From Mobula birostris (lineage: Eukaryota), in NCBI RefSeq assembly GCF_030028105.1, contig NC_092378.1, forward strand, positions 80,674,134 to 80,738,133: 64,000 nt of DNA, given 5' to 3'. The notes under the pieces are model-generated. The model worked only from the letters and a program-made list of their open reading frames with translations. It did no database searches and was not told the DNA's origin. Shown piece after piece: positions 9,447-56,989 of the stretch (positions are counted from its first letter, which is position 1; the number at the start of each line of letters is the position of its first letter). The translations under genes and the position numbers were made by a program.

Positions 9447-9720
9447 AGATTCAAGATTCAAGTTCCAAGTTTAGTTATCATATGTACATCAGAACATACG
9501 TAGAGTGAAAGGCATATTTGTGTTAATCATTAACACAACCTGAGGGTGTGCTGGGGGAAGCCTGCAAGTGTTGTCACACATTCCAGCGCCATAGTCTGCT
9601 GAGCATTCTGGGCATAACACTACAGAGCACAACAAGCAGAATCAACAGCCCCATTCCTCCCTCGTTCCCAGGCACATACATAGTCCACTAACCCCAGGAC
9701 AGGCCTGCAGCGGACATGGA
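9447..9720 (-). repeat. Interspersed LINE 3'-UTR-like repeat (other copies at ~10295-10440, 10925-11160, 42765-42805 plus 44754-44870, 56335-56900)
   Basis: Shared motif GACACTTGC.GGCTGCCCCCAGCACA..CTC...CATTTCACT...TGTGACAAATAAAGCTAATCT, seen in both orientations. Confidence 0.6.
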
Positions 9721-10235: not shown

Positions 10236-10604
10236 AATTTGGAAATTCAAACCCCATTCTCAAATTTTCATAAATCTGTAGCATCTTTCCTGAAACTGAA
10301 AGCTGGTGCCAGAAGCACGGCGACACTTACAGACTGCCTCTAGCATATACTCAAACTGTGTTGGTTATGAATGAAAAACAACACATTTCACCACTGGTTT
10401 TGATGTTTCAATATAGATGTGACAAATGAAGCTTTTCTTTTTTTTTTACCTTGTAAGGTAACTGCACTTGTCCAACAGTGTAATGCTAATTTACACTTCT
10501 GCACTTCTCCTTATAAATCTTTATTGTCAATTGCTCCTCAAGGATCTACCTTTATGACCTATGGCCTAATGTGTTTTATATTTCTTTTAGTTTCTGTGCA
10601 TTTC

Positions 10605-10910: not shown

Positions 10911-11534
10911 TAAAAGGCTCTGATTCAGATTCATTTATTTATCACATATATATTGAAACATGCAGTACAATGCATCTTTTGAGTTAACAACCGAACACAT
11001 CCTAAGGATATGTTGGCAGCAGTTCGCAAGTGTTGCTACACAATTTCGCCTACAATGCCCAGCAGAACAACACAGAATACAACAAAGCAAAGAACAAGCA
11101 AATAAACAACAGCAACATAACAAGCCCTCTTCCTCCCTCCCACTCACACCAACAACAGTCAAGATTACAGTTAAATTGTATAATAAATCCACAGTCAAAT
11201 ACATCAAGATTGTGTCTAGTGAATTTGCAATTGATACATTCTGTTCTCTCATTTATCTTTGAATATTCTAGTTATATCTGTTTGAAACCGTAGATGTTTT
11301 CAGATTCATCCATTATTGAGGACAGTTCCATCTCCAGCTAGGAGGGAAGGAATGGTGTACAGTGTCCACCTAGGAATCTAGAAAAGGTCGTGTAGATGAG
11401 GGTGACCAGTGATGAGTCTTGCCATAGCATAGCTATGACTGGAAGGTGAGCATAATCTGGGAAATACACTTGAATACAGACTGCCATAGTTTTATTTTAC
11501 TGAAACCTTTAAGTTTTATAATTATTTAAAGACA

Positions 11535-13221: not shown

Positions 13222-14564
13222 CAGACATCCCACCCTGCAAAAACTCATTTTCGGGAGGTAGCACCACCCCTGATCCCCGCAACCTCATATCCACCCCTCC
13301 CCCTGGTCGACCTCCAAGGGTGTATATATACAACGTATACAGGACATTTGATTATGAAAGAACACAATTTATTTAATCACAAATATGTAAATAGCTTCTC
13401 TCTCTCTTTCTCTCAATATATATATATATATATATATTTCTTGTTGAGTATTTTGCTGGCAGTCTCAATGCTGATAACTAAATGCTAATGCAAATAGCTT
13501 TTCTATTTCTTTTGCAAACTTTCCTTGTATTGTGATGTGGCTTACTTGGCAGATTTGAGCATTTTACCGGAAGTCTCAACCTCATAGCAGTCTGTGTCAA
13601 TGAATTTGTTAATTTTGCAAGACATCAGATTCACAAGTGTTTTGTGAGACAGATGACTTCTGAATTCTGTCTTAATGTGATGCACCATACTGAATGCACT
13701 TTCTACATCATAATTAGAAATTGGCAGCACCAAAAGCAGCTTCATCAACTGGCAGAGCTCTTTGAATCTCAACTGCCCTGTGCTCACAGATTTTACTTTG
13801 GATAGCTTCCCCCAGAACTCATCAACTTGCAAACTTTTGTAGTTTGGCACCAGTCCTTCAAGGTTAGTTGAGACATACTCCAGGACTTCCAAGTGGAACT
13901 GTTCTCTTGCATCTGCCTTGATCACATTTGAAAATCTCTCTGTCAAAGCCAAAACCTGCTCTGGATTCACCTCATCTTGGCTCTCTGTATTGACCACTGA
14001 CAGATTTTTCAAGATTTGGTCTCTCATTGGGAACTTCTCCAAGATTTTTTGAAAGCACCTCACATAGAATACTCTGGCATCTTTAAAGAACTGCTTTGTC
14101 TTGTAAGGGAGGTGGGGGGAGATCTCTTGTGCTTCCTCACTTAGCAACTGCCTCCTTGCCAGGTACCCAATGCAGCGAGCAACACTGTCATTATTGTTGA
14201 CCCCTATTAGGCAGGGGTACACTTTAGTGTAGTCTGGGGTGAAGTACGTTTTATATTTCCTTTTTTTGGAACACTCTGCCATGGCGCTGCAGGAAACTAA
14301 ACTGAACTGATGGACAATGAAAGAGAGAGAGGTCGACTGTAAAGCCCGCCCACAGAGAAAACTGATAGGTCTACTTAACTCAAAGAGAGACCAATCAGGA
14401 TGCTCTCTCTGCCACTCTCTCACTATGTCTGTCACTCACTCTCTGTCTCTCTTGCTATCAAAATAAATTGATTTCTGGGATATTATATATAATTTTCAGG
14501 TGTCAGGGAGACACTATCAATATGCAGGAGAGTCCCGGAACTTCCAGGAGAGGTGGGATGTCTG
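13222..14564 (-). mobile_element. hAT DNA transposon, internally deleted, 13-bp TIR, 6-bp TSD
   Basis: TIR CAGACATCCCACC / GGTGGGATGTCTG, with TGTAAG on both sides (13216-13221, 14565-14570). ORF 13542-14435 ends in a hAT dimerisation domain (EFW...LLVLPISNYDVESAFSMVHHIKTEFRSHL). Confidence 0.88.
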
Positions 14565-18040: not shown

Positions 18041-18878
18041 TTATTACAAGGACTGATGTTTGCAGTAAGGTGAGTCCCAGACTCTCACATCCTGTAAGAC
18101 AGGGAGTCCCAGACTCCTACACCCCGTAGCACAGTGAGTCCCAGACCCCTACACCCCATACTACAGTGAGTACCAGACTCTTCCACCCGGTGGTACAGTG
18201 AATCCCAGAATCCTACACCCCATAAGACAGTAAGTCCCAGACTCCTATACCCTGTTAGGCAGTGAGTCCCAGACCCCAACACTCCATAAGACAGTGAGCA
18301 CAGACTCCTACACCCCATAGTAAAGTCACTCTTACACCCTATAAGACAGTGAGCCCAGACACCTACACCTCGTAGTACAGTGAGTCCGAGACTCCTACAC
18401 CCCCAGCAGAGTCCCAGACTCCTACACCCCATAGTATAGTGTCCCAGACTCCTACACCCCACAGTACAGTGAGTCCCAAACTCCTACACTCCGTAGTACA
18501 GTGAGTCCGAGACTCCTACACCCCCAGCAGAGTCCCAGACTCCTACACCCCAGAGTACACTGAGTCCCAGACTCCTACACCCCATAGTACAGTGAGTCCC
18601 AAACTCCTACACTCCGTAGTACAGTGAGTCCGAGACTCCTACACCCCCAGCAGAGTCCCAGACTCCTACACCCCATAGTATAGTGTCCCAGACTCCTACA
18701 CCCCACAGTACAGTGAGTCCCAAACTCCTACACTCCGTAGTACAGTGAGTCCGAGACTCCTACACCCCCAGCAGAGTCCCAGACTCCTACACCCCAGAGT
18801 ACACTGAGTCCCAGACTCCTACACCCTATAAGACAGTGAGCCCAGACTGCTACAGCCCTCAGTACAGTAAGACTTACT

Positions 18879-20032: not shown

Positions 20033-23000
20033 TAGTAAGTCACAGACCCCTACACACCGTTAGACAGTGAGCCCAGACTCCTAGACCCCGTAGTACACTG
20101 GGTCCCAGACTCCTGCACACCATAAGACAGTGAGCCCAGTCTCCTACACCCGGTAGTACAGTGAGTCCCAGACTCCTACACCCCATAGAATAGTGAGTCC
20201 CAGAATCCTACTCCCTGAAAGACAGAGTCACAGACTCTAACACCCCATAAGACAGTGAGTCCCAGACTGCTGCACCCCGTAGTAGAGCGAATCCCAGACT
20301 CCTACACCCTAAAAGACATTTAGCCAAGACTCCTACACACCATAGTACAGTGAGTCCCAGACTCCTACACCCTGTAGTACAGTGAGTCCCAGCCTCCTAC
20401 ACCCCATAGGACAGAGAGTCCCAGACTACTACACCCCATATTGCAGTGAGTCCAGGACTCCAACACCCTAGAAACAGTGAGTCCCAGGCGCCTACATCCC
20501 ACAGTACAGTGAGACCCAGGCTCCTACACCCCGTAGTGCTGTGAGTCCCAGACTCCTACACCCTATAAGACTGTAGGTCCCAGATTCCTACACCCTGTTA
20601 GACAGTGAGACCCAGAATCCTACACTCCATAAGACAGGGAGCCCAGACTCCTAAACCCCGTAGTACAGTGAATCCCAGAATCCTACACAACGTAGTACAG
20701 TGAGTCCCAGACTAAGACACCCCATAGTACAGTGAGTCCAGGCCTCCTGCACCCTATAAGACAGTGAGTCCCAGAATCCTACACCCTGTAAGACCGAGTC
20801 CCAGACTCCTGAACCCTGTCGCACCATGAGTCCAAGACTCCTAAACCCTGTAAGACAGTGAGTCCCAGTCTCGAACACTCCGTAGTACAGTGAGTCCCAG
20901 ACTCCTACACCCCGTATTACAATGAATGCCAGACTCATCCACCCCATAAGACAGTGAACCAGACTCCTACACCCCGTAGTACAGTGTGTCTCAAACTACT
21001 ACACTCCGTAGTACGTTGAGTCCGAGACTCCTACACCCCCTAGCACACTGAGTCCCAGACTCCTACACCCCGTATTACAATGAATGCCAGACTCATCCAC
21101 CCCATAAGACAGTGAGCCCAGACTCCTACACTCTGTAGTACAGTGAGTCCCAGACACCTACACCCCGTATTACAGTGAGTCCCAGACTCCTACACCCCGT
21201 ATTACCGTAGGTCCCAGACTCCTACACCCCATAGTACAGTGAGTACTAGACTCCTACAACCCATTTTACAGTGATACCCAGACCCCTACACGCAGTAGTA
21301 CACTGAGTCCCCGAATTCTACACCCCGTAGTTCAGTGAGTCCCAGACTCCTACACCCCATAAGACAGTGAGCCCAGATTGCTATGCCCCGTAGTACAGTG
21401 AGTCCCAGACTCCTACACCCCGTAGTACAGTGCGTCCCAGAATCCTACACCCTGAAAAGCAGTGAGTCACAGACTCCTGCAACCCATAAGACATTGCGTC
21501 CCAGACTCCTACACCCCGTTAGACAGTGAGTCCCAGACACCTACGCCCCTTAGTACAGTGAGTCCCAGACTCCTACACCCCGTAGTACAGTGCGTCCCAG
21601 AATCCTACACCCTAAAAAAAAGTGAGTCACAGACTACTACAACCCATAAGACATTGCGTCCCAGACTGCTACACCCCGTAGTACAGTGTGTCTCAAACTC
21701 CTACATTCCATAGTACGTTGAGTCCGAGACTCCTACACCCCCTAGCACACTGAGTCCCAGACTCCTACACCCCATAAGACAGTGTGCCCAGACTCCTACA
21801 CCCCATAGTACAGTGGGTCCCAGACTCCTACAATCCATCAGACAGTGAGTCCCAGACTCCTACATGCCGTAGTACAGTGAGTCCCAGACTCCTACACCCC
21901 TTAGTACAGTGAGTCCCAGACTCCTACACCCCTTAGTACAGTGAGTCCCAGACTCCTACACCCCTTAGTACAGTGCGTCCCAGAATCCTACACATTAAAA
22001 AACAGTGAGTCCCAGACTCCTACACCCCATAAGACAGTGAAGCCAGACTCCTACACACCATTAGACAGTGAGCCCAGACTCCTACACTCTGTAGTACAGT
22101 AAGTCACAGTCTCCTACGCACCCTTAGACATTGAGTCCCAGAATTCTACACCACATAGTACAGTGAGACACAAACATCTGCAACGCAAGGTACAATGAAT
22201 CCCAGATTCCTTCACCCCATGAAACCATGAGTCCCAGACTCCTACACCCCTTAGTACAGTGCAGCCCAGACTCCTACACCCTGTATGACATTGAGCCCAG
22301 ACGCCTACACCCCGTAGTACTTTGATTCCCAGACTTCAACATTCTGCAATACAGTGAGTCCCAGACTCCTCCACCCCGTTAGACAGTGAGTCCCAGACTC
22401 CTACACAGTGTAGTACAGTAAGTCACAGTCTCCTACACCCCCTTAGACAGTGAGTCCCTGAATTCTACACTCCGTAGTACAGTGAGCCCAGGACTCCTAC
22501 ACCCTGTAACACAGAGAGCCCAGACTTCTAAACCCCGTAGTACAGTGAGTCCCAGATTCCTACACACCACAGTACAGTGAGTCCCAGACTCCAGCACCCT
22601 GTAAAGAGTGAGCCCCGGCCTCATACATCCCAGCGAACAGTGAGATCCAGACTCCTACACCTCGTAGTATTGTGAGTCCCAGACTCCTACACGCCATAAG
22701 AGAGTGAGCCCAGTCTGATGCACCCCATGAGACAGTAAGTTCCAGACTCCTACACCCTGTTAGGCAGTGAGTCCCAGACTCGTACACCGCATAAGACAGT
22801 GACCCAGACTCCTACACCCCGTAGTACAGTGTGTCTCAGACTCCTACATTCCGTAGTACGTTGAGTCCGAGACTCCTACACCCCCTAGAACACTGAGTCC
22901 CAGACTCCTACACCCCCAGCACAGTGAGCCCAGACTCCTACACCCTGTAGTACAGTGAGTCCCAGACGCCTACACCTCGTATTGCAGTGAGTCCCAGACC

Positions 23001-26000
23001 CCTACACCCCATAGTACAGTGAGTACCAGACTCCTACAACCCATTTTACAGTGATACCCAGACCCCTACGCGCCGTAGTACACTGAGTCCCCGAATTCTA
23101 CACCCCGTAGTACACTGAGTCCCTGAATTCTAAACCCCGTAGTACAGTGTGTCCCAAACTCCTACACTCCGTAGACAATTGAGTCCGAGATTCCTACACC
23201 CCCTAGCACACCGAGTCCCAGACTCCTACACCCCATAAGACAGTGAGCCCAGACTCCTACGCCCCGTAGTACGGTGCGTCCCAGAATCCTACACCCTGAA
23301 AAACAGTGAGTCACAGACTACTACAACCCATAAGACATTGTGTCCCAGACTGCTACACCCCGTAGTACAGTGCATCCCAGACTTCTACACCCCATAAGAC
23401 ATTGAGCCCAGACTCCTGCAACCCGTAGTTCAGTAAATCACAGGCTCCTACACCCACTAGCACAGTGAGTCCCAGACTCCTACACCCCAGAGTACACTGA
23501 GTCCCAGACTCCTACACCCCAGAGTACACTGAGTCCCAGAATCCTACACCGCGTAGTACAGAGAGTCGCAGACACTTATACGCCGTGGTACAGTGAGTCC
23601 CAGACTCCTACCCTCCATAAGACAGTGAGTCCAGACTCCTACACCCCATAGTACACTGAGACACGGACTCCAAAACTCTGTAAACAGTGAGTCACGGACT
23701 GCTACATCCCATAGTGAGTCCCAGACTCATACACCGCATAAGACAGTGACCCAGTCTCCTACACCCCGTAGTACTGTGAGTCCTAGACTCCTACACCCCA
23801 TAAGACAGTCGGTTCAGTCTCCTACACCCCGTAAGACAGTGAGCCCAAACTCCTACACCCCGTAGTACAGTGTGTCCGAGATACCAACACCCTGGAGTAC
23901 AGTGAGTCCCAGACGCCTACTCCCCGTAGTACACTGAGTCCCAGACTCCTACACCCCATAAGACGGTGAGCCCAGACTCCTACGCCCCGTAGTTCAGTGA
24001 GTCCCAGGCTAAGACACCCCCTAGTACAGTGAGTCCCCGAATTCTACACGCCGTAATACAGTGAGTCCCAGACTCCAGCACCCTGTAAACGGTGAGTCCC
24101 GGACTCATACATCCCAGTGAACAGTGAGATCCAGACTCCTACACCTCGTAGTACTGTGAGTCCCAGACTCCTACACCCCATAAGAGAGTGAGCACAGTCT
24201 GATACACCCCATGAGACAGTAAGTCCCAGACTCCTACACCCTGTTAGGCAGTGAGTCCCAGACTTGTACACCCCATAAGACAGTGACACAGACTCCTACA
24301 CCCCGTAATACAGTGTGTCTCAAACTCCTACACTCCGTAGTACATTGAGTCCGAGACTCCTACACCCCCTAGCACACTGAGTCCCAGACTCCTACACACC
24401 ATAAGACAGTGAGCCCAGACTCCTACACCCTGTAGTACAGTGAATCCCAGACTCCTACACACAACAGTACAGTGAGTCCCAGACCCCTACACCCCGTAGT
24501 ACACTGAGTCCTCGAATCCTGCACCCTGTAGAACAGTGAGTCCCAGACTCCTAAACAGTGTAAGACAGTTAGTCCCAGACTCCTATACCCCGTAGCATCA
24601 TAAGCCCCAGACTCCTATACCCCCAGTACAGTGAGTCCCAGACTCCTACACCGCATAAGACAGTGAACCCAGACACCTACACACCGTAGTACACTGAGTC
24701 CCCGAATTCTACACCCCGTAGTACACTGAGTCCCCGAATTCTACACCCCGTAGTACACTGAGTCCCAGACTCCTGCACCCCATAAGACAGTGACCCAGTC
24801 ACCTACACTGCATAGTACAGTATGTCCCAAACTCCTACACTCCGTAGACAATTGAGTCTGAGATTCCTACACCCCCTAGCACACTGAGTCCCAGACTCCT
24901 ACACCCCATAAGGTAGTGAGCCCAGACTCCTATGCCCCGTAGTACAGTGAGTCCCAGTCTCCTACACCCTGTAGTACGGTGCGTCCCAGAATCCTACACC
25001 CTGAAAATCAGTGAGTCACAGACTACTACAACCCATAAGACATTGCGTCCCAGACTGCTACACCCCGTAGTACTGTGCGTCCCAGACTCCTACACCCTAT
25101 AAGACATTGAGCCCAGACTCCTGCAACCTGTAGTACAGTAATTCACAGACCCCTACACCCCGGAGTACACGGAGTCCCAGACTCCTACACCCCAGAATAC
25201 ACTGAGTCCCAGAATCCTACACTGTGTAGTACAGAGAGTCGCAGACGCTTACCCCCCGTAGTACAGTGAGTCCCAGACTCCTACACTCCATAAGACAGTG
25301 AGTCCAGACTCCTACACTTCATAGTACACTGAGACACAGACTCCAACACTCTGTAAACAGTGAGTCCCGGACTGCTACATCCCATAGTACAGTGAGATCC
25401 AGACTCCTACACCCCGTAGTACTGTGAGTCCTAGACTCCTACACCCCATAAGACAGTCAGTTCAGTCTCCTACACCCCGTAAGACAGTGAGGCCCAAACT
25501 CCTACACCACATAGTACAGTGTGTCCGAGATACCAACACCCCGGAGTACAGTGAGTCCCAGACGCCTTCTCCCCGTAGTACAGTGAGTCCCAGACTCCTA
25601 CACCACGTAGTACAGTGTGTCCCAGACATCTGCACCCCATAAGACAGTTATCCCAGACTCCTACACCCTGTTAGACAGTTAGACCCAGACTCCTACACCC
25701 CATAAGACATTGAGCACAGATTCCTACACACTGTAATACAGTGAGTCCCAGACTCCGACACCCTATAACACAGTGAGCCCAGACTGCTACACCCCATAGT
25801 ACAGTGAGTCCTAAACTCCTACAGCCCGTAGCACAGTGAGTCCAAGACTCCTACACCCCATAGTACAGAGAGTCCAAGACTCCTACACACTGTTGTACAG
25901 TGACTCCCAGACTCCTACACACAACAGTACAGTGAGACACAGACTCATACATACCGTAGTAAATTGAGACCCAGATCCCTACACCCCGTAGTACACTGGG

Positions 26001-29000
26001 TCCCCGAATCCTGCACCCCGTAGAACAGTGAGTCCCAGACTCCTAAACCGTGTAAGACAGTGAGTCCCAGACTCCTATACCCCGTAGCATCGTAAGTCCC
26101 AAACTCCTATACCCCCTAGTACAGTGAGTCCCAGACTCCTACACCCCATAAGACAGTGAACCCAGACACCTACACACCATTAGACAGTGTGCCCAGACTC
26201 CTACGCCCCATAGTACAGTGGGTCCCAGACTCCTACAATCCATCAGACAGTGAGCCCAGACTCCTACATGCCGTAGTATAGTGAGTCCCAGACTCCTACA
26301 CCCCTTAGTACAGTGAGTCCCAGACTCCTACACCCCTTAGTACAGTGAGTCCCAGACTCCTACACCCCTTAGTACAGTGAGTCCCAGACTCCTACACACC
26401 ATTAGACAGTGAGCCCAGACTCCTACACACTGTAGTACAGTAAGTCACAGTCTCTTAAACATTGAGTCCCAGAATTCTACACCACATAGTACAGTGAGAC
26501 ACAAACTCCTACAATGCAAGGTACAATGAATCCCAGATTCCTTCACCCCATAAGACCTTGAGTCCCAGACTCCTACACCCCTTAGTACAGTGCGGCCCAG
26601 ACTCCTACACCCCGTTACACAGTGAGTCCCAGACTCCAACACAGTGTAGTACAGTAAATCACAGTCTCCTACACCCCCTTAGACAGTGAGTCCCTGAATT
26701 CTACATTCCGTAGTACAGTGAGTCCAGGACTCCTACACCCCAAAACATAGAGAGCCCAGACTTCTAAACCCCGTACTACAGTGAGTCCCAGATTCCTACA
26801 CACCACAGTACAGTGAGTCCCAGACTCCAGCACCCTTTAAACAGTGAGTCCCGGACTCATACATCCCAGCGAACAGTGAGTCCCAGACTCCTACTCCCCG
26901 TAGTACACTGAGTCCCAGACTCCTACATCTCATAAGACAGTGAGTCACAGTCTCCTACGCACCCTTAGACAGTGAGTCCCTGAATTCTACACTCAGTAGT
27001 ACAGTGAGTCCAGGACTCCTACACACCACTGTACAGTGAGTCCCAGACTCCAGCACCCTGTAAACAGTGAGCCCCAGACTCATACATCCCAGCGAACAGT
27101 GAGATCCAGACTCCTACACCTCGTAGTACTGTGAGTCCCAGACTCCTACACCCCATAAGAGAGTGAGCCCAGTCTGATACACCCCATCAGACAGTAAGTC
27201 CCAGACTCCTACACCCTGTTAGGCAGTGAGTCCCAGACTTGTACACCCCATAAGACAGTGACCCAGACTCCTACACCCTGTAGTACAGTGAATCCCAGAC
27301 TCCTACACACAACAGTACAATGAGACACAGACTCACACATACCGTAGTACATTGAGACCCAGACCCCTACACCCCGTAGTACACTGAGTCCCTGAATCCT
27401 GCACCCCGTAGAACAGTGAGTCCCAGACTCCTAAACCGTGTAAGACAGTGAGTCCCAGACTCCTATACCCTGTAGCATCGTAAGTCCCAGACTCCTATAC
27501 CCCCTAGCACAGTGAGTCCCAGACTCCTACACCGCATAAGACAGTGAACCCAGATGCCTACACACCGTTAGATAGTGTGCCCGGACTCCTACACCCCATA
27601 GTACAGTGGATCCCAGACTCCTACAATCCATCAGACAGTGAGCCCAGACTCCTACATGCCGTAGTATAGTGAGTCCCAGACTCCTACACCCCTTAGTACA
27701 GTGAGTCCCAGACTCCTACACACTAAAAAACAGTGAGTCCCAGACTCCTACACCCCATAAGACAGTGAAGCCAGACTCCTACATGCCGTAGTACAGTGTG
27801 TCCCAGACTCCTACACCCCTTAGTACAGTGAGTCCCAGACTCCTACACACAGTAGTACAGTGCGTCCCAGAATCCTACACACTAAAAAACAGTGAGTCCC
27901 AGACTCCTACACCCCATAAGACAGTGAAGCCAGACTCCTACACGCCATTAGACAGTGAGCCCAGACTCCTACATACTGTAGTACAGTAAGTCACAGTCTC
28001 CTACGCACCCTTAGACATTGAGTCCCAGAATTCTACACCACATAGTACAGTGAGACACAAACTCCTACAATGCAAGGTACAATGAATCCCAGATTCCTTC
28101 ACCCCATAAGACCTTGAGTCCCAGACTCCTACACCTCTTAGTACAGTGCGGCCCAGACTCCTACACCCTGTAAGCTATTGAGCCCAGACGCCTACACCCC
28201 GCAGTACATTGATTCCCAGACTTCAACACTGCAGTACAGTGAGTCCCAGACTCCTACACCCCATAAGGCAGTTATCCCAGACTCCTACACCCTGTTAGAC
28301 AGTTAGACCCAGACTCATACACCCCATAAGACAGTGACCCAGACTCCTACACCCCGTAGTACAGTGAGTCCCAGACTCCTACACATCGTAGTACAGTTAG
28401 TCCTAGACTCCTACAGACCATAGTACAGTGAGCTCCAGACTCCGGTACTCCGTAGTACAGTGAGTCCCAGACTCCCACACCCCGCAGTACAGTGAGTACA
28501 AGACTCCTACACTCCGTAGTACAGTGAGTCCCAGACTCCAACACCCCACAGTACAGTGAGTACAAGACTCCTACGCGCCGTAATACAGTGAGTTCTGGAC
28601 TCCTACACCCCAGAGTACAGTGAGTCCCAGACTCCTACCCCCTGTAGTACAGTGAGCAACGACTCCTACACACCGTAGTACAGTAACTCCCACAGTCCTG
28701 CAACCCATAAGACGGTGAGCCCAAACCGCTACACCCCGTGGTACATTGAGACCCAGACTCCTACACCCCATAGTACAGTGAGTCCCAGACCCCTACACCC
28801 CTTAGTACAGTGAGTCCCAGACTCCTACCCCAGAGTACAGTGAGTCCCAGACTCTAACACCCTGCAGTACAATGAGCCCCAGACTCCTACACCCCATTAG
28901 ACAGTGAGTCCCAGACTCCTAGACCCTATAAGACAGTGAGTCCCACACTCCTACACCCGATAGTACCATGAGTCCCAGGCTCATATATCCTGTAGTACTG

Positions 29001-32000
29001 TGAGTCCTAGACTCCTACACCCAATGTACAGTGAGACATAGTCTCTTACAACCTGTATTACATTGAGACCCAGACTCCTAAACCTTGTAAGACAGTGAGT
29101 CCCGACTCCTAAACCCCATAAGACAGTGAGTCCCAGACTCCAACACCCCTTAAGACAGTGAGCCCAGACTCCTACACCCCATACTATAGTGAGTACCAGA
29201 CTGCTACACCGCATAGTACAGTGAGCCCCAGACTCCTACACCCCGTAGTACAGTGAGACCCAGACTCCTACACCCCGTAGTACAGTCAGTCCCAGACTCC
29301 TACACACTGTAGTACAGTGAGTCCCAGACTTCTACACCCCGTAGTACATTGAGTCCCAGACTCCTACATCGTGTAGTACAGTGAGCCCCAGACTCCTACA
29401 CCCTGTATTACAGTGAGTCCCAGACTCCTACACACTACAAGACAGTGAGCCCAGACTCCTACACCCCGTAGTACAGTGAGTCCCATACTGCTGCACACCG
29501 TATTACAATGAGTAATACAATGACAGTGAGCCCAGACTCCTACATGCTATAAGATATTGAGTCCCAGACTCCTACAGACCGTAGTACAGTGAGTCCCAGG
29601 CTACTACACCCTGTATATAGTGAGCCCCAGTCTTCTACACCCTGTAGTACAGTGAGTCCCAGACTCTGACACCCCATAGTATAGTGCATCCCAGACTCCT
29701 ACACCCTGTAAACAGTGAGTCCCAGAGTCCTACATCACATATTACAGTGAGACCCAGACACCTACACCCCGTAGTATCGGGAGTCCCAGACACCTGCACA
29801 CGATAAGATAGTGAGCCCAGACTCCTACACCCCATAAGACAGTGAGTCCCAGACTCTTATACCCCGTAGTACAGTGAGTCCCAGACTCTTACACCCCGTA
29901 GTACAGTCAGTCTCAGACTTTTCCACCCCGTAGTACCATGAGTCCCAGACTCTTACACCCTGTAATACAGTGAGTCACAGACTCCTAAAAAACGTAGTAC
30001 AGGTAGTCCCGGACTCCTACACCCCATGGTATAGTGAGTCCCAGACTCCTACACACTGTAAGATAGTGAGTCCCACACTCCTGCACCCCGTAGTACCGTG
30101 AATCCCAGACTCTTATACCCCGTAGTACAGTGAGTCCCAGACTCCTAAACCTTGTAAGACAGTGAGTCCTTGACTCCTACACCCCATAAGACAGTGAGTC
30201 CCAGACTCCAACACCCCTTAAGACAGTGAACCCAGACTCCTATACCCCGTAGTACAGTGATTCCCGACTTCTACACCCCAAAAGACAGTTAGTCCCAGAC
30301 ACCTACACCCCATAAAACAGTGAGCCCAGACTCCTACAACCCCTTGAACTGTGAGTCCCAGACTCCTACACTACATAGTACAGTGAGACCCAGACTCCTA
30401 CACCCAACGTGTAGTGAGAACCAAACTCCTACACACCGTAGTACAGTGCGACCCAGACTCCTACACACCGTAGTACAGGAGTCCCAGATTGCTACATCCT
30501 ATAGTACAGTTACAGCCAGACTCCTACACCCCGTAGTACAGTGAGACCCAGATTCCTACAACTCATAGTATAGTGAGTCCCAGAAACCTCCACCTCGTAG
30601 TACAGTGAGTCCCAGACTTCTACAGCCCGTAGTACACTGAGTCCCAGTACTACACCCCATGGTACAGTTGAGTCCCAGACTCCTGCACGCTGTAAACAGT
30701 GCGTCCCGGACTCCTACATCCCATAGTACAGTGAGACCCAGACTCCTACACCCCGTACTACTGTGAGTCCCGGACTCCTACACCACTTAAGATGGTGAGC
30801 ACAGACTCCTACACCCCGTAGTACAGTGAGTCCCAGACTCCTACACCCCATTATAGAGTGAGACCAGACTCCTACACCCCGTAGCACAGTGAGTCCCAAA
30901 CTCCTACATGCCATAGTACAGTGAGTTCCAGAGTCCTACACATCTTCGTACTGTGCGCCCCAGACTCCTAGACACAGTAGTACAGTGCGTCCCAGGTTGC
31001 TACATCTCATAGTACAATGACATCCAGACTCCGACACCCCATAGTACAGTGAGACTCAGACTCCTACAACCCATAGTACAGTGAATCCAAGGCTCCTTCT
31101 CCTGAAGTACAGTGAGTCCCAGACTCCTACACCCCATAATACAGTGACCCCAGACTCGTACACCACGTAGCACAGTGGGTCCCAGATTCCTACAACCCAC
31201 AAAACAGTGAGCCCGGACTCCTACACCCCGTGGTACAGAGAGTATCAGATTCCTACACACCATGGTACAGTGTGTCAGACTCCTACACACCATAGTATAT
31301 TAAGACCCAGAATCGTACCCACTGAAAGACAGTGACTCACAGACTCCTACACCCCTAAAGACAGTGAGTCCGAGACTCCTACACCCTATAAGAAATTGAG
31401 CCCAGTCTCCTACATCCCGCTAGACAGTGAGACCCAAACTGCTACAGCCCATACTACAGTGAGACTCAGACTCCTACACCCCGTTGTACAGTGAGACCCA
31501 GACACCTACAACCCATAGTACACAGAGTCCCAGACTCCTACACCGCATCGTACTGTGAGTGCCAGACTCCTACATCCCGTAGTACAGTGAGTCCCAGACT
31601 CCTAAGACCCATAAGACAGTGAGCCGAGACTCCTACACCCCGTTAGACACTGAGTCCAGACTCCTGCACCCCGTAGGACAGTGAGTCCCAGACTCCTACA
31701 CCCCATAGTGCAGTGAGTCCCAAACTCCTACACCCCACAGTATAGTGAGTACCAGACTCCTACACACCGTAGTACAGTGAGTTCCAGACTCCTAAAACCC
31801 ATAAGACAGTGAGCCCAGACTCCTACACCCCGTTAGACAGTGAGCCCAGACTCCTGCACCCCGTAGGACAGTGGGTCCCAGACTCCTACACCCCATAGTG
31901 CAGTGAGTCCCAAACTCCTACACCCCACAGTATAGTGAGTCCCAGACTCCTACATCCCACAGTACAGTGAGTCCCAGACTCCTACATCCCACAGTACAGT

Positions 32001-33337
32001 GAGTCCCAGACTCCTACACACCGTAGTACAGTTAGTCCTAGACTCCTGCAGACCGTAGTACAGTGAGCTCCAGACTCCTGCACCCCGTAGTACAGTGAGT
32101 CCCAAACTCCTACACCCCACAGTACAGTGAGTACCAGACTCCTACACGCCGTAGTACAGTGAGTTCCAGACTCCTACACCCCAGAGTACAGTGAGTCCCA
32201 GACTCCTACCCCCTGTAGTACAGTGAGCAACGACTCCTACACACCGTAGTACGGTAAGTCCCACACTCCTACAACCCATAAGACAGTGAGCCCAGACTCC
32301 TACACCCCATAGTACAGTGAGTCCCAGACTCCTACACCCAGTAAGACATTGAGTCCCAGACTCCTACACCCTGTAGTACAGTGTGCCCAGACTCCTATGC
32401 CCCGTAGTACACTGAGTCCCAGACTCCTACACCCCATTAGACAGTGAGCCCAGACTCCTACACCCCATAGTACAGTGAGTCCCAGTCTCCTGTACCCTGA
32501 ATGACAGTGAGTTCCAGACTCCAACACCCTAAATCACTGAGCCCAGACTCGTACATTCCGTAGTACAGTGATTCCCAGACTCTTACACCCCATAGTACAG
32601 TGAGTCCCAGACACCTACACCCCATTGTACAGTGTGTCCCAGTCTCCTACACCCTGCAGTACAGTGTGTCCCAGTGTCCTACACCTTTTAAGACCGTGAG
32701 TCCCAGACTCCTATAGCCCATAGTACAGTAAGTCCCAGACCCCTACACCCCATAAGACAGTGAGCCCAGTCTCCTACACCCCGGAGTATAGTCAGTCCCA
32801 AACTCCTACAGCCCATAGTACAGTGAGTCCCAGACTCCTACACCCCATAGTACAGTGAGTCCCAGACTCCTACACCCTGTAATACAGTGAGTCCCAGACT
32901 CCTGCACCTTTCAGTACAGTGAGTCCCAGACTCCTACACCCCATAGCACAGTGAGTCCAGTCTCCTACACCCCGGAGTACAGTCAGTCCCATACTCCTAC
33001 ACCCCATAAGACAGTGAGCCCAGTCTCCTACTCCCCGGAGTACAGTCAGTCCCAGACTCCTACACCCTGTAGTGCAGTGAGTCCCAGACTCCTGCAGCTC
33101 GTAATACAGTGAGTCCCAGACTCCTGCACCTTTCAGTACAGTGAGTCCCAGACTCCTACACCCCGTAGCACAGTGAGTCCCAGACTCCTACACTCCATAG
33201 TACAGTGAGTCCCAGACTCCTACACCCCGTAGTACAGTGAGTCCCGGACTCCTACACCCCGTATTACTGTGAGTCTCAGACTGCCACGCCCCGTAGTACA
33301 GTGAGTCCCAGACTCCTGCACTCTGTAAGACCGTGAA

Positions 33338-41585: not shown

Positions 41586-41895
41586 CAGAAGTCCCCAACC
41601 TCCGGGCCACGGACCGATACATTGCCGCGAAGCATGCAGCGGTGCAGCGGTGGCCGGAATGCACACAGCACATCTTTAAGAAAAAAGCTGAAATAAACAA
41701 GCTAATTAATTAGGTGCCGCCCAGCACGTAAATGTCGGCCCAGATCAGAGGTGACGCTGGGCGGCACCTAATTAATTAGCTTGTTTATTTCAGCTTTTTT
41801 CTTAAAGATATGCTGGGTGCAGTCCGGCCACCGTGGTACCCCTGAATGCTTCGGTGGAATGTATCAGTCCACGGCCTGGAGGTTAGGGACCACTG
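41586..41895. mobile_element. Charlie-type hAT MITE, fold-back, 310 bp
   Basis: Perfect 8-bp TSD CTTTTGGC (41578-41585, 41896-41903); TIR CAG..GTCCCCAACCTCC; arms are complementary almost to the centre. Confidence 0.92.
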
Positions 41896-41975: not shown

Positions 41976-42480
41976 CTGACCCACAAGGACCCAGCAATGA
42001 TGTACCTGTCTCCCGTGTCTGTGACGCACAATGACCCAGCAATGATGTACCTGTCTCCTGTGTCTGTGACCCACAACGATCCAGCAATGAAGTACCTGTC
42101 TCCCGTGTCTGTGACCCACAACGACCCAGCAATGAAGTACCTGTCTCCCGTGTCTGTGACCCACAACGGCCCAGCAATGATGTACCTGTCTCCCATGTCT
42201 GTGACTCACAATGACCCAGCAATGAAGCACCTGTCTCCCGTGCCTGTGACCCACAACGACCCAACAATGATGTACCTGTCTCCCCTGTCTGTGACCCACA
42301 ATGACCCAGCAATGAAGCACCTGTCTCCCGTGCCTGTGACCCACAACGACCCAACAATGATGTACCTGTCTCCCCTGTCTGTGACCCACAATGACCCAGC
42401 AATGAAATACCTGTTTCCTGTGTCCGTGACCCACAAAGACCCAGTAATGAAGTACCTGTCTCCTGTGTCTGTGACCCACT
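41976..42480. repeat. 45-bp minisatellite, about 11 copies
   Basis: Unit TGTGACCCACAACGACCCAGCAATGAAGTACCTGTCTCCCGTGTC, giving a 15-aa periodicity in the overlapping ORFs. Confidence 0.97.
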
Positions 42481-43174: not shown

Positions 43175-43318
43175 GACACACAAACTGCTTATAAATAGCA
43201 GCGGATCACAGACACAGGAGACAGGTATTTCATTGCTGGGTCGTTGTGGGTCACAGACATAGGAGACAGGTACTTCATTGCTGGGTCATTGTGGGTCACG
43301 GACACAGGAGACAGGTAC
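43168..43318 (-). repeat. Inverted copy of the minisatellite right edge and its flank (~42362-42512)
   Basis: TGGGGAGGACACACAAACTGCTTA.AAATAGCAG.GG.TCACAGACAC... is the reverse complement of 42512 reading leftwards, plus about three 45-bp units. Confidence 0.9.
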
Positions 43319-44720: not shown

Positions 44721-45189
44721 CCTGTATTGTGCTGTAGGTTTTCTATGTTTCTAATACCTGCAGCCTGCCCCAGCAGATCCTCGGAATGTATTGATCATTG
44801 ACACAAACACATTTCACTTTATGTTTTGATATTTCGATGCACATGTGACAGATAAAGCTAATCTTATATAATCAGATGGTTGGATGAGAACATATAAACA
44901 TTACGTGTTATCCACAAATCAAAATGTGACACAGTCTAGTTATACCCAGAGGGTTACGGGAAAGAGTAATGGAAGAACTTCACTGTGCAATTAGGACTTG
45001 CTAGTGTGACAGCAATAACATGTGGCTCTGGAAGTGTTACCCAATGAAATCAATGCCTCCAATGTAATAAGATACAATTCCCACACCACCAGGATCAGGA
45101 ACGTTTCTTACCCTACACCCTTCAGGCTCCTGAATCAGTGTGCATAACTTCACTCACCTCAACATTGAACTGACTCCACAATCCATGGA

Positions 45190-55560: not shown

Positions 55561-56465
55561 AGTTGGGTGGTCAACACAGTATTCACGGACTTGTTGGCCA
55601 AAGGGCCTGTATTTGTGCCATAAACAAGTATTCATGCTCTAAAACAAGAAAATAAATGTGTGAGAAATATCAACGATGCTGCCAATACAAGCTCGTCCAT
55701 TCCTCATACTGGCACTAGATGAGAATTGCACTGCCTGCTTTTAGAGAACAGTTTGTTTATCATAATTTTCCTACTTGAATTCTCTGCAGTGTAGCACAGC
55801 TCTTTACTTTGATCAGATAATTCAACTTAATGCTCCCTGCCTTAGCCATGCTTTTGACATGATCCCAGTGAAGAGACTTCAAGGGTTCCTAAAATCTTCT
55901 TGATTATTGAAGAACTGCTTCAAGTGGGAAACAGGTTTAGATTGTGATCTGTCAAAACTTGGAAGTAACACTGTGCATGAATGAAGTTGGGAGGAGAGAG
56001 GAGCAAGAGGTTTTGTACAGAAAGAAAGCAGATATATCAGATGAGTCTGATTAATCCAACTATTGTGCTGAGATGATTAAATATCTCAGGCCAACCAGGC
56101 AGTTATGGGGTGATTGCCCGTAGATTCTGATAAATAGCAATTTGAGCAGCATCTACCGTAGAGGAGAAAAGGAATTGTCAATGTTTCGGGTCTAAACTCT
56201 ATATGAGAATGAAATAACAACAATTCCTTTCCCCTTACAGATGCACTGGACCTACTGCTTTCCTGCAGCGGATTGATTGTCAACCAATATACACCTAGAA
56301 ATCTGGTGTTGTGTATATGTAAGCTCTGGACAGGTCATGTTGGTGCCAGAAGCATGATAACACTTGTGGGCTGCCCCCAGCACATCCTTGGATGGTGCTG
56401 ATTGTTGACACGAACAATGCATTTTGCTGTACATTTTGATGTTTCAATGTACATGTGACAAATAA

Positions 56466-56873
56466 CTTACTGCCCATTACACCACTGACCTATAGAGTAG
56501 CAATGAAGGCACTCTTATCTCTACCGATGTTCAGGGCCTCCTTCATCATGTCAGTAGCCTCCTCTCAGTTTTCACTACTGTCAGTCATACAAGTCCCAGT
56601 TGGAGACTCAGGAATACCATCACACTCAGATGTAGAAGGAATCTTCATTGCTGTTACCATACCAGTTTTGTTTTACCATTCATGGTTGTTAGCCCTGAAC
56701 CTGGAGGACTGGTGGACTACTATTAGTCTGGCCTCTACTCTTTGACCTGTTTGGCATGGGTGACCCTACCAAGAGCCAAAGCATAAAGCCAGACTCCAGC
56801 CAACATAGCTTTCCATGTCATAGAGGCACGCAAGCCACCAAACCCTATGGCAAGGTTGTGGTCCTCCTGGAGG
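56466..56873 (-). mobile_element. Short non-autonomous RTE-type retroelement (408 bp) with 12-bp TSD
   Basis: TSD TGTGACAAATAA at 56454-56465 and 56874-56885. The 5' region GGACCACAACCTTG..GGCTTGCGTGCC..AGCTATG..GTAGGGTCACCCATGCC..ACAGGTC resembles RTE/BovB-type 5' ends. Confidence 0.72.
56714..56873 (-). ncRNA. Putative HDV-like ribozyme (decayed copy) at the element 5' end
   Basis: Minus-strand order: P1 CCUCCA, P2 GGACCAC, P3 AACC, loop UUGCCAUAG, P3' GGUU, P1' UGGUGG, long P4 region, J4/2 CUAA, P2' GUAGUCC. P1 and P2 each have one mismatch. Confidence 0.5.
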
Positions 56874-56989
56874 TGTGACAAATAAAGCTAATCTTTAATC
56901 ATTATGGCAAAGGAGTGTACTGCCACAGTATTACAGTATTTCATTTTTGCAGTTCTGTAAAAGCAGAGCGTTCTGTTTTCAGAATGGTT

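Follow-up and report, generated by a model that had tools for sequence, protein, structure and literature searches.

A 408-bp insert in the window, i.e., the whole 64-kb stretch of DNA analysed here, is best read as a decayed copy of a short RTE element whose 5' end carries an HDV-type fold with C at +1 and a putative kink-turn, a fold that would belong to a broad RTE lineage and cut at +1 in its active relatives; we give this reading a probability of about 0.7. The element and its borders are the following:

56466..56873, minus strand: short retroelement of the RTE clade, bipartite (internally deleted) and 408 bp long, recognised by its TSD and, by eye, by 5' homology to Repbase RTE 5' UTRs
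56874..56885, unstranded: TSD copy on the 5' side of the element, exact 12-bp repeat
56454..56465, unstranded: TSD copy on the 3' side of the element, which inserted into the end of an older dispersed repeat
56466..56648, minus strand: putative ORF remnant of 61 codons, with stops at 56567-65 and 56492-90, assigned from its reading frame and resemblance by eye

The perfect 12-bp duplication reported in the earlier note holds, and its 12-mer occurs only twice in the whole 64-kb window. When the insert and one TSD are removed, the modelled empty site aligns through the junction to 44768-44874 (78%, 110 columns, E 1e-19) and, again across the junction, to a second paralogue at 10304-10440. Since these empty-site paralogues span the junction, the 408 bp truly inserted into a repeat that was already there. 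The end of this target repeat is present in the window in five diverged copies (9470-9576, 10304-10440, 10934-11034, 44768-44874, and 56341-56465), and it looks like a LINE 3' end.

Inspection by eye shows the first ~165 nt of the element to be homologous to 5' UTRs from many RTE families of Repbase, as printed in the supplement of Kojima 2018 (PMC5786205), and also to AviRTE and RTE-4_AMi as given in Suh 2016 (PMC4844689). The putative ORF remnant, in the 3' 183 nt, ends in a D-[RK]-x-x-F stretch like that of the RTE C-termini compared and in a GTAA-type end, a motif-level resemblance seen by eye; the latter recalls the GTAA tail described for Perere-3 (PMC8501958), likewise by eye. Protein database searches with the 61-codon remnant found no relative, the single match in the representatives protein search being to an unrelated repeat protein, and none of six motifs from the 3' half was matched in a search of the PMC5786205 supplement. 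The element has an RTE 5' UTR at its 5' end, is bounded by a TSD and has lost most of its ORF. A Pol III SINE was rejected, because no tRNA head, no B box and no Rfam match is found at the element; the one A-box-like match lies at the 3' end. The earlier suggestion of a SINE-like element that does not use a Pol III promoter is supported as to the missing head, but bipartite, internally deleted RTE appears from the sequence to be a better name than SINE.

The element's 5' end can be drawn as a ribozyme-type core:

56868..56873, minus strand: P1 5' strand, +1 = C, predicted cleavage 5' of 56873 (helix map; covariation with relatives)
56858..56864, minus strand: P2 5' strand (helix map; four double-sided changes relative to the natural relative L001, see below)
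56841..56857, minus strand: P3 (4 bp) and L3 (56853-56845, 9 nt) (helix map and comparison with relatives)
56833..56840, minus strand: P1 3' strand (56840-35), then C 56834 and U 56833 (helix map; post-P1 bases invariant in relatives)
56721..56726, minus strand: J4/2 with the candidate catalytic C at 56726, in a C-N-A-A motif with N free across families (helix map; published relatives as available)
56714..56720, minus strand: P2 3' strand (helix map; comparison with L001)
56700..56715, minus strand: downstream tract out-competing P1' and the P2 5' strand (nested folding)

The helices proposed in the earlier note are present in the nested order P1, P2, P3, P1', P4, J4/2, P2', with P1 starting at the first base after the TSD. 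The window copy forms 5/6 pairs in P1 (56873-68/56840-35), 6/7 in P2 (56864-58/56720-14) and 4/4 in P3 (56857-54/56844-41), and in J4/2 the candidate C 56726 is followed by a free base and then by A, as in the relatives compared. The classical HDV-like form has G.U or G-C at the cleavage site; here a C1-G pair is found instead, in the window copy as well as in the relatives available for comparison. The earlier note had counted the absent +1 G as a defect, a view that does not survive the comparison, given that a C at +1 pairs with G in L001 as well as in seven of the nine AviRTE/RTE-4_AMi 5' ends extending to P1 (one starts with U and one has no +1), and that trypanosomatid L1Tc/SIDER ribozymes cleave before C1, as reported from primer extension (PMC4035085). 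The same source calls earlier HDV descriptors too restrictive for P1 and P1.1, and a 6-bp P1 is described as a normal length for HDV-like ribozymes (PMC4908430).

Nor is P1.1, judged unclear in the earlier note, probably missing: G 56851 can form one G-C pair with C 56834, both being invariant in relatives, hence without covariation. This G-C is inverted relative to the HDV geometry. That L3 begins with UUG and CUU comes after P1' suggests a single inverted G-C pair as P1.1. In the window copy L3 measures 9 nt vs 7 nt in relatives and has A at 56848 where most relatives keep a conserved G, so that the 7-nt L3 with its U.G reverse wobble, retained in L001 and in most of these relatives, is absent here. 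A G-to-A change in L3 abolished a Nasonia R2 ribozyme (PMC3774820). Nested folding of the window copy gives P1 and P4a a probability of 0.0, pairs the candidate C (unpaired 0.00-0.02) and lets the tract 56715-03 displace P1' and P2; this model scores neither pseudoknots nor kink-turns and finds no P1, P4a or NC helix in L001 either. Because of the L3 G-to-A change, the two extra L3 bases and the competing helices, the window copy most likely no longer cleaves, as the earlier note had supposed, and the U.U in P1 is likely a further lesion. The element's initial 8 nt are found again at 56707-56700 (minus strand), directly downstream of P2', in the tract able to displace P1' and P2; this repeat could be an attenuator like that downstream of L1TcRz, or a small duplication.

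Taken by itself, the window copy is only modest evidence for the fold: among 3000 dinucleotide shuffles, 66 satisfy at +1 a loose HDV descriptor set to the quality of this copy, and 2034 of the 127600 positions in the window fit it as well. The Rfam scan of the window gave no match at gathering score and no HDV-like match, the locus showing six weak snoRNA matches and L001 one weak match, all far below their gathering scores, and neither thermodynamic nor two-sequence consensus folding recovered the ribozyme fold. The descriptor counts and the lack of an Rfam match speak for the helices being a chance pattern, an explanation that has become very improbable and is largely refuted by compensatory changes in P1 and P2 of L001 and, by eye, in published families.

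L001 was the only locus obtained when bacterial genome contigs were scanned with a degenerate motif covering only 56767-56723, so that P1, P2 and P3 lie outside the motif. Its positions 910-1300 hold a eukaryote-like short RTE element in a contig of a bacterial metagenome-assembled genome, probably host contamination. The CpG ratio is 0.78 in L001 vs 0.27 in the window, and this difference suggests another host lineage. The two sequences are 84% identical over 63 nt (E 8e-16). L001 pairs 6/6 in P1, 6/7 in P2 and 2/4 in P3, and has a 7-nt L3 with G, a C1-G pair, G22-C38 and CAAA in J4/2. When the two sequences are aligned, pairing is seen in 92.6% of 68 cells vs 27.5-47.8% in six slid controls. 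There are five double-sided changes between the two copies, four of them in P2; a shuffle control of the alignment gave 17-25/500, which is weak with two rows. With P1-P3 as given in the earlier note and P4 helices drawn with L001 in view, seven pairs differ on both sides; L001 pairs all seven, two of which are mismatches in the window copy (P 0.002-0.004 with simple nulls and 0.004 with transition bias). Covariation had been named in the earlier note as the check on P1, P2 and P3; P1 and P2 covary against L001 and P3 does so by eye in the published families, whereas P3 of L001 is paired at only two of its four positions.

The published consensuses were compared by eye as given in the Kojima 2018 supplement (PMC5786205) and in the Suh 2016 Supplementary Data (PMC4844689). 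The P1 5' strand is visible in 8 of 14 AviRTE records, and all eight start at most 1 nt from the P1 +1; P1 is paired 6/6 in five of them, has one mismatch in two hummingbird forms and is 4/6 in Loa loa, with three double-sided changes between parrot/hornbill and trogon/tinamou forms. RTE-4_AMi forms 5/6 pairs in P1. In afrotherian RTE1 the three helices are wholly different in sequence yet paired, RTE1-N1_LA having 5/5 of the P1 pairs shown and quite different P2 and P3 strands. Together with the window copy and L001, these relatives display more than one Watson-Crick pair type at 5/6 P1 and 4/4 P3 positions. J4/2 reads C-N-A-A across families, N taking all four bases. The fold is thus supported through its relatives, by the covariation of L001 and by published RTE/AviRTE ends that begin at P1 and, by eye, show covariation in all three helices, and a nested pseudoknot of HDV type right at the 5' terminus of a short element derived from RTE, as first put forward, stands in these sequence comparisons.

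The same records bear on whether the fold cleaves. It could be real and yet mainly structural, an internal or upstream promoter setting the 5' end and the fold serving RNA protection, RTE protein binding or translation with little or no cleavage. This account, which we consider unlikely, gains from BuceSINE, where a ~77-nt head precedes an intact core, from three AviRTE consensuses with U or Y at the catalytic C, from the same L3 G-to-A change in two autonomous consensuses (RTE-4_AMi and RTE-1_OAf), and from L1Tc, whose promoter is described within the same 77 nt as its ribozyme (PMC3185411). It is opposed by the 5' ends located at the P1 +1 and by the C of C-N-A-A, kept in every compared Repbase RTE/R4 row that reaches J4/2; moreover, none of the three C-less AviRTE forms shows the P1 5' strand (one is unsequenced there) vs 8 of 10 AviRTE with the C, an anecdotal contrast. 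The tRNA-headed SINE2-1_EC, damaged in L3, in P1' and at the U that follows P1 but with P4 still paired, is a natural control agreeing with the prediction of Kojima's argument (PMC5786205). The BuceSINE head and the window element share their first 9 nt (56873-56865 in the window), probably by chance. The R4-clade Dong-2_Lch and R4-1B_AC share the RTE 5' domain (compared with window 56834-56723), which suggests, from these sequences, an exchange of the ribozyme module between the RTE and R4 clades.

Cleavage at +1 in active relatives being the preferred reading, the remaining part of the fold is its P4 domain, of ~105 nt, with these features:

56815..56827, minus strand: bulged strand of the proposed kink-turn, with C helix 56827-23, 3-nt bulge 56822-20, GA 56819-18 and a decayed NC helix 56817-15 (comparison with L001; kink-turn consensus)
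56768..56809, minus strand: P4 hairpin arm of variable length, base helix 56809-06/56771-68 (comparison with L001)
56758..56766, minus strand: near-invariant hairpin of 3 bp and a triloop in P4 (L001 and published relatives as available)
56731..56740, minus strand: non-bulged strand of the proposed kink-turn, with NC helix 56740-38, U(2n) 56737, A(1n) 56736 and C helix 56735-31 (L001 also has U at 2n)

The domain is closed in the window copy by helix 56827-23/56735-31, and, after CUU and a conserved internal loop, a helix leads through a 3-nt N-R-U bulge and GA into a further helix, the opposite strand also carrying GA. This arrangement is described as the standard kink-turn pattern, and U at 2n is reported for Kt-23, which folds (PMC5061560). 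Of 13 family groups counted by eye, 12 have the N-R-U bulge with GA, 12 have the partner GA, and all 13 have an NC helix with at least three pairs, the identity of the pairs varying in either flanking helix; the groups are two lamprey, four crocodilian and three locust RTEs, Dong-2_Lch, BovB_Plat, afrotherian RTE1 (as one) and AviRTE (as one), and the count took those with both strands visible, one-strand rows being left out. Exceptions are RTE1_LA, without the kink-turn A of the bulged strand, and RTE-22_LMi, with a bulge of only 1 nt. L001 shows the pattern; the window copy has it with U at 2n, an NC helix of 2/3 pairs and an alternative straight helix. The unusual length attributed to P4 in the earlier note is confirmed, but its peculiarity to one family is not, as the ~105-nt P4 is, judging from the sequences compared, a conserved RTE domain with a kink-turn consensus inside.

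It is possible, although doubtful, that the ribozyme core is right and P4 forms no kink-turn, the conserved UGA pairing instead with the near-invariant GGGUCW or the RNA switching between the two. The minimum-energy fold of L001 indeed pairs 958-965 with 1002-1009 (8 bp, UGA tract with GGGUCA tract), and the window copy can absorb the bulge into an 8-bp straight helix. Such pairing, however, is disrupted in AviRTE, in the locust RTEs and in platypus BovB with no compensatory change seen by eye, and both helices around the GA/GA motif covary, also by eye. A kink-turn, if formed, would probably bind a host L7Ae-family protein or shape the domain for stability or translation, and this is the weakest step of the argument. 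We put forward only tentatively, as a view that is more probably wrong than right, that the broad RTE lineage comprising BovB, AviRTE, afrotherian RTE1, lamprey, crocodilian and locust RTEs, together with some R4/Dong elements, carries an undescribed subclass of HDV-like ribozyme, in which, besides C1-G and an inverted P1.1, the P4 kink-turn would recruit a host L7Ae-family protein (such as SNU13/15.5K or eL30) to the cleaved, uncapped RNA.

In the mechanism that we favour, an old copy would have been built from an RTE 5' UTR joined to what is left of the ORF and 3' end, and inserted by target-primed reverse transcription, as indicated by the TSD and the empty site, with the RTE machinery presumably acting in trans. 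Its first 160 nt would be an HDV-type variant with C1-G, a single inverted G-C P1.1, C-N-A-A in J4/2 and a ~105-nt P4 made of a helix, the kink-turn, a second helix and a multi-arm junction. By analogy with L1Tc, R2 and other RTE ribozymes, the fold of active relatives would free the element at +1 from a host read-through or promoter-led transcript; the cut would fix the 5' end and leave a structured uncapped end, the fold protecting the uncapped RNA, which RTE proteins would copy starting at the 3' end, as in known systems. Binding of the kink-turn by a host L7Ae-family protein would be the most speculative step.

Short non-LTR elements headed by an HDV-like ribozyme are already known (NARTc, SIDERs, R2 SIDEs and bipartite RTEs). 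Among the closest parallels is L1TcRz of L1Tc/NARTc with the SIDER ribozymes, HDV-like ribozymes located at +1 both in a non-LTR element and in the short element derived from it, with C at +1 and a single-pair P1.1, L1TcRz being reported to work in the short NARTc (PMC3185411, PMC4035085). These belong, however, to the ingi clade, measure ~77-94 nt, have a short P4 and are of demonstrated activity, whereas the fold described here is RTE-clade, ~160 nt long, has a multi-helix P4 of kink-turn type and is known from sequence. R2 SIDEs and R2/R1 SIDEs are also short and internally deleted, with a 5' HDV-like ribozyme and the 3' end retained, but they are rDNA-specific, have a long J1/2 instead of a long P4, and their cleavage has been shown (PMC3414825). 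For the bipartite non-autonomous RTEs (RTE1-N1_LA, RTE-N2_Lch, and RTESINE1/2) no fold of the 5' UTR is given in the part of PMC5786205 available. Perere-3 twister variants share with the present element the RTE origin, a 5' ribozyme adjoining the TSD and a GTAA 3' end, but their fold is that of twister, with P1 partly formed by the TSD (PMC8501958). A Perere-3-type twister fold was rejected for the present element from the HDV order of its covarying helices. Kt-23 resembles the proposed kink-turn in its 3-nt bulge, the G.A at 1b.1n and U at 2n, and differs in its rRNA context (PMC5061560), the kink-turn described here being proposed from sequence.

None of the Rfam HDV-like models matches the window copy or L001. 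RTE-clade HDV-like ribozymes, with HDV-like 5' processing, have reportedly been described by Ruminski and colleagues in 2011. RTE ribozymes are cited in reviews (PMC6765202, PMC7761336). No description of a kink-turn in such ribozymes was found among the papers listed in the literature searched, the study of 2011 lying outside that search and possibly containing this variant already; queries for AviRTE with ribozyme returned only Kojima 2018 (PMC5786205), and a BovB query gave no on-topic title among the matches listed. The possibly new part is the particular fold proposed for the 5' UTR common among vertebrate RTE/BovB/AviRTE elements, together with the conserved kink-turn in P4. If right, it would explain the sharp 5' end and the conserved ~150-nt 5' block of RTE elements, suggest how RNA is produced and protected in very different hosts without a dedicated promoter, provide a reason for Pol III SINEs built on the RTE 5' UTR damaging or dropping the core, and offer a structural guide for RTE-based gene-insertion templates, for which the RTE-1_MD UTRs are under empirical optimisation (PMC13708176). 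If true, the subclass would combine a self-cleaving ribozyme with a docking site for a host protein, in elements known to be transferred horizontally, and would be missed by Rfam and standard descriptors.

Whether the insert represents an amplified short family is a separate question. Within the 64-kb window it is the only copy, no further one being detected by BLAST or by motif with 3 mismatches, and a covariance model search yielded two extra matches with E values of 0.7-0.8 only; plasmid and phage collections contained no match to the element. A one-off internally deleted RTE insertion would account for this, but it seems rather improbable given the clean 5' and 3' ends with TSD, the apparently similar short element in L001 (~390 bp by eye) and the fact that amplified bipartite RTEs are common (PMC5786205). 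The 61-codon remnant has no similarity to an L001 frame, and the best TSD candidate around L001, 8 bp with 1 mismatch, is not convincing. A similar abundant repeat probably occurs in ray genomes.

The window is repeat-rich eukaryotic DNA that contains fragments of CR1/L2-type reverse transcriptases, one hAT fragment and a satellite of 13 kb. The satellite is a 32-bp tandem repeat (18070-18868 and 20034-33321) present in ~419 copies; it is strongly skewed between strands and has higher-order periods. A 45-bp tandem repeat, open in three frames, occurs in both orientations at 41977-42479 and 43206-43318 and is adjoined by a 300-bp inverted repeat (41591-41890). On the minus strand, an open frame of 297 codons at 13542-14435 encodes a hAT dimerisation domain and is probably what remains of a DNA transposon.
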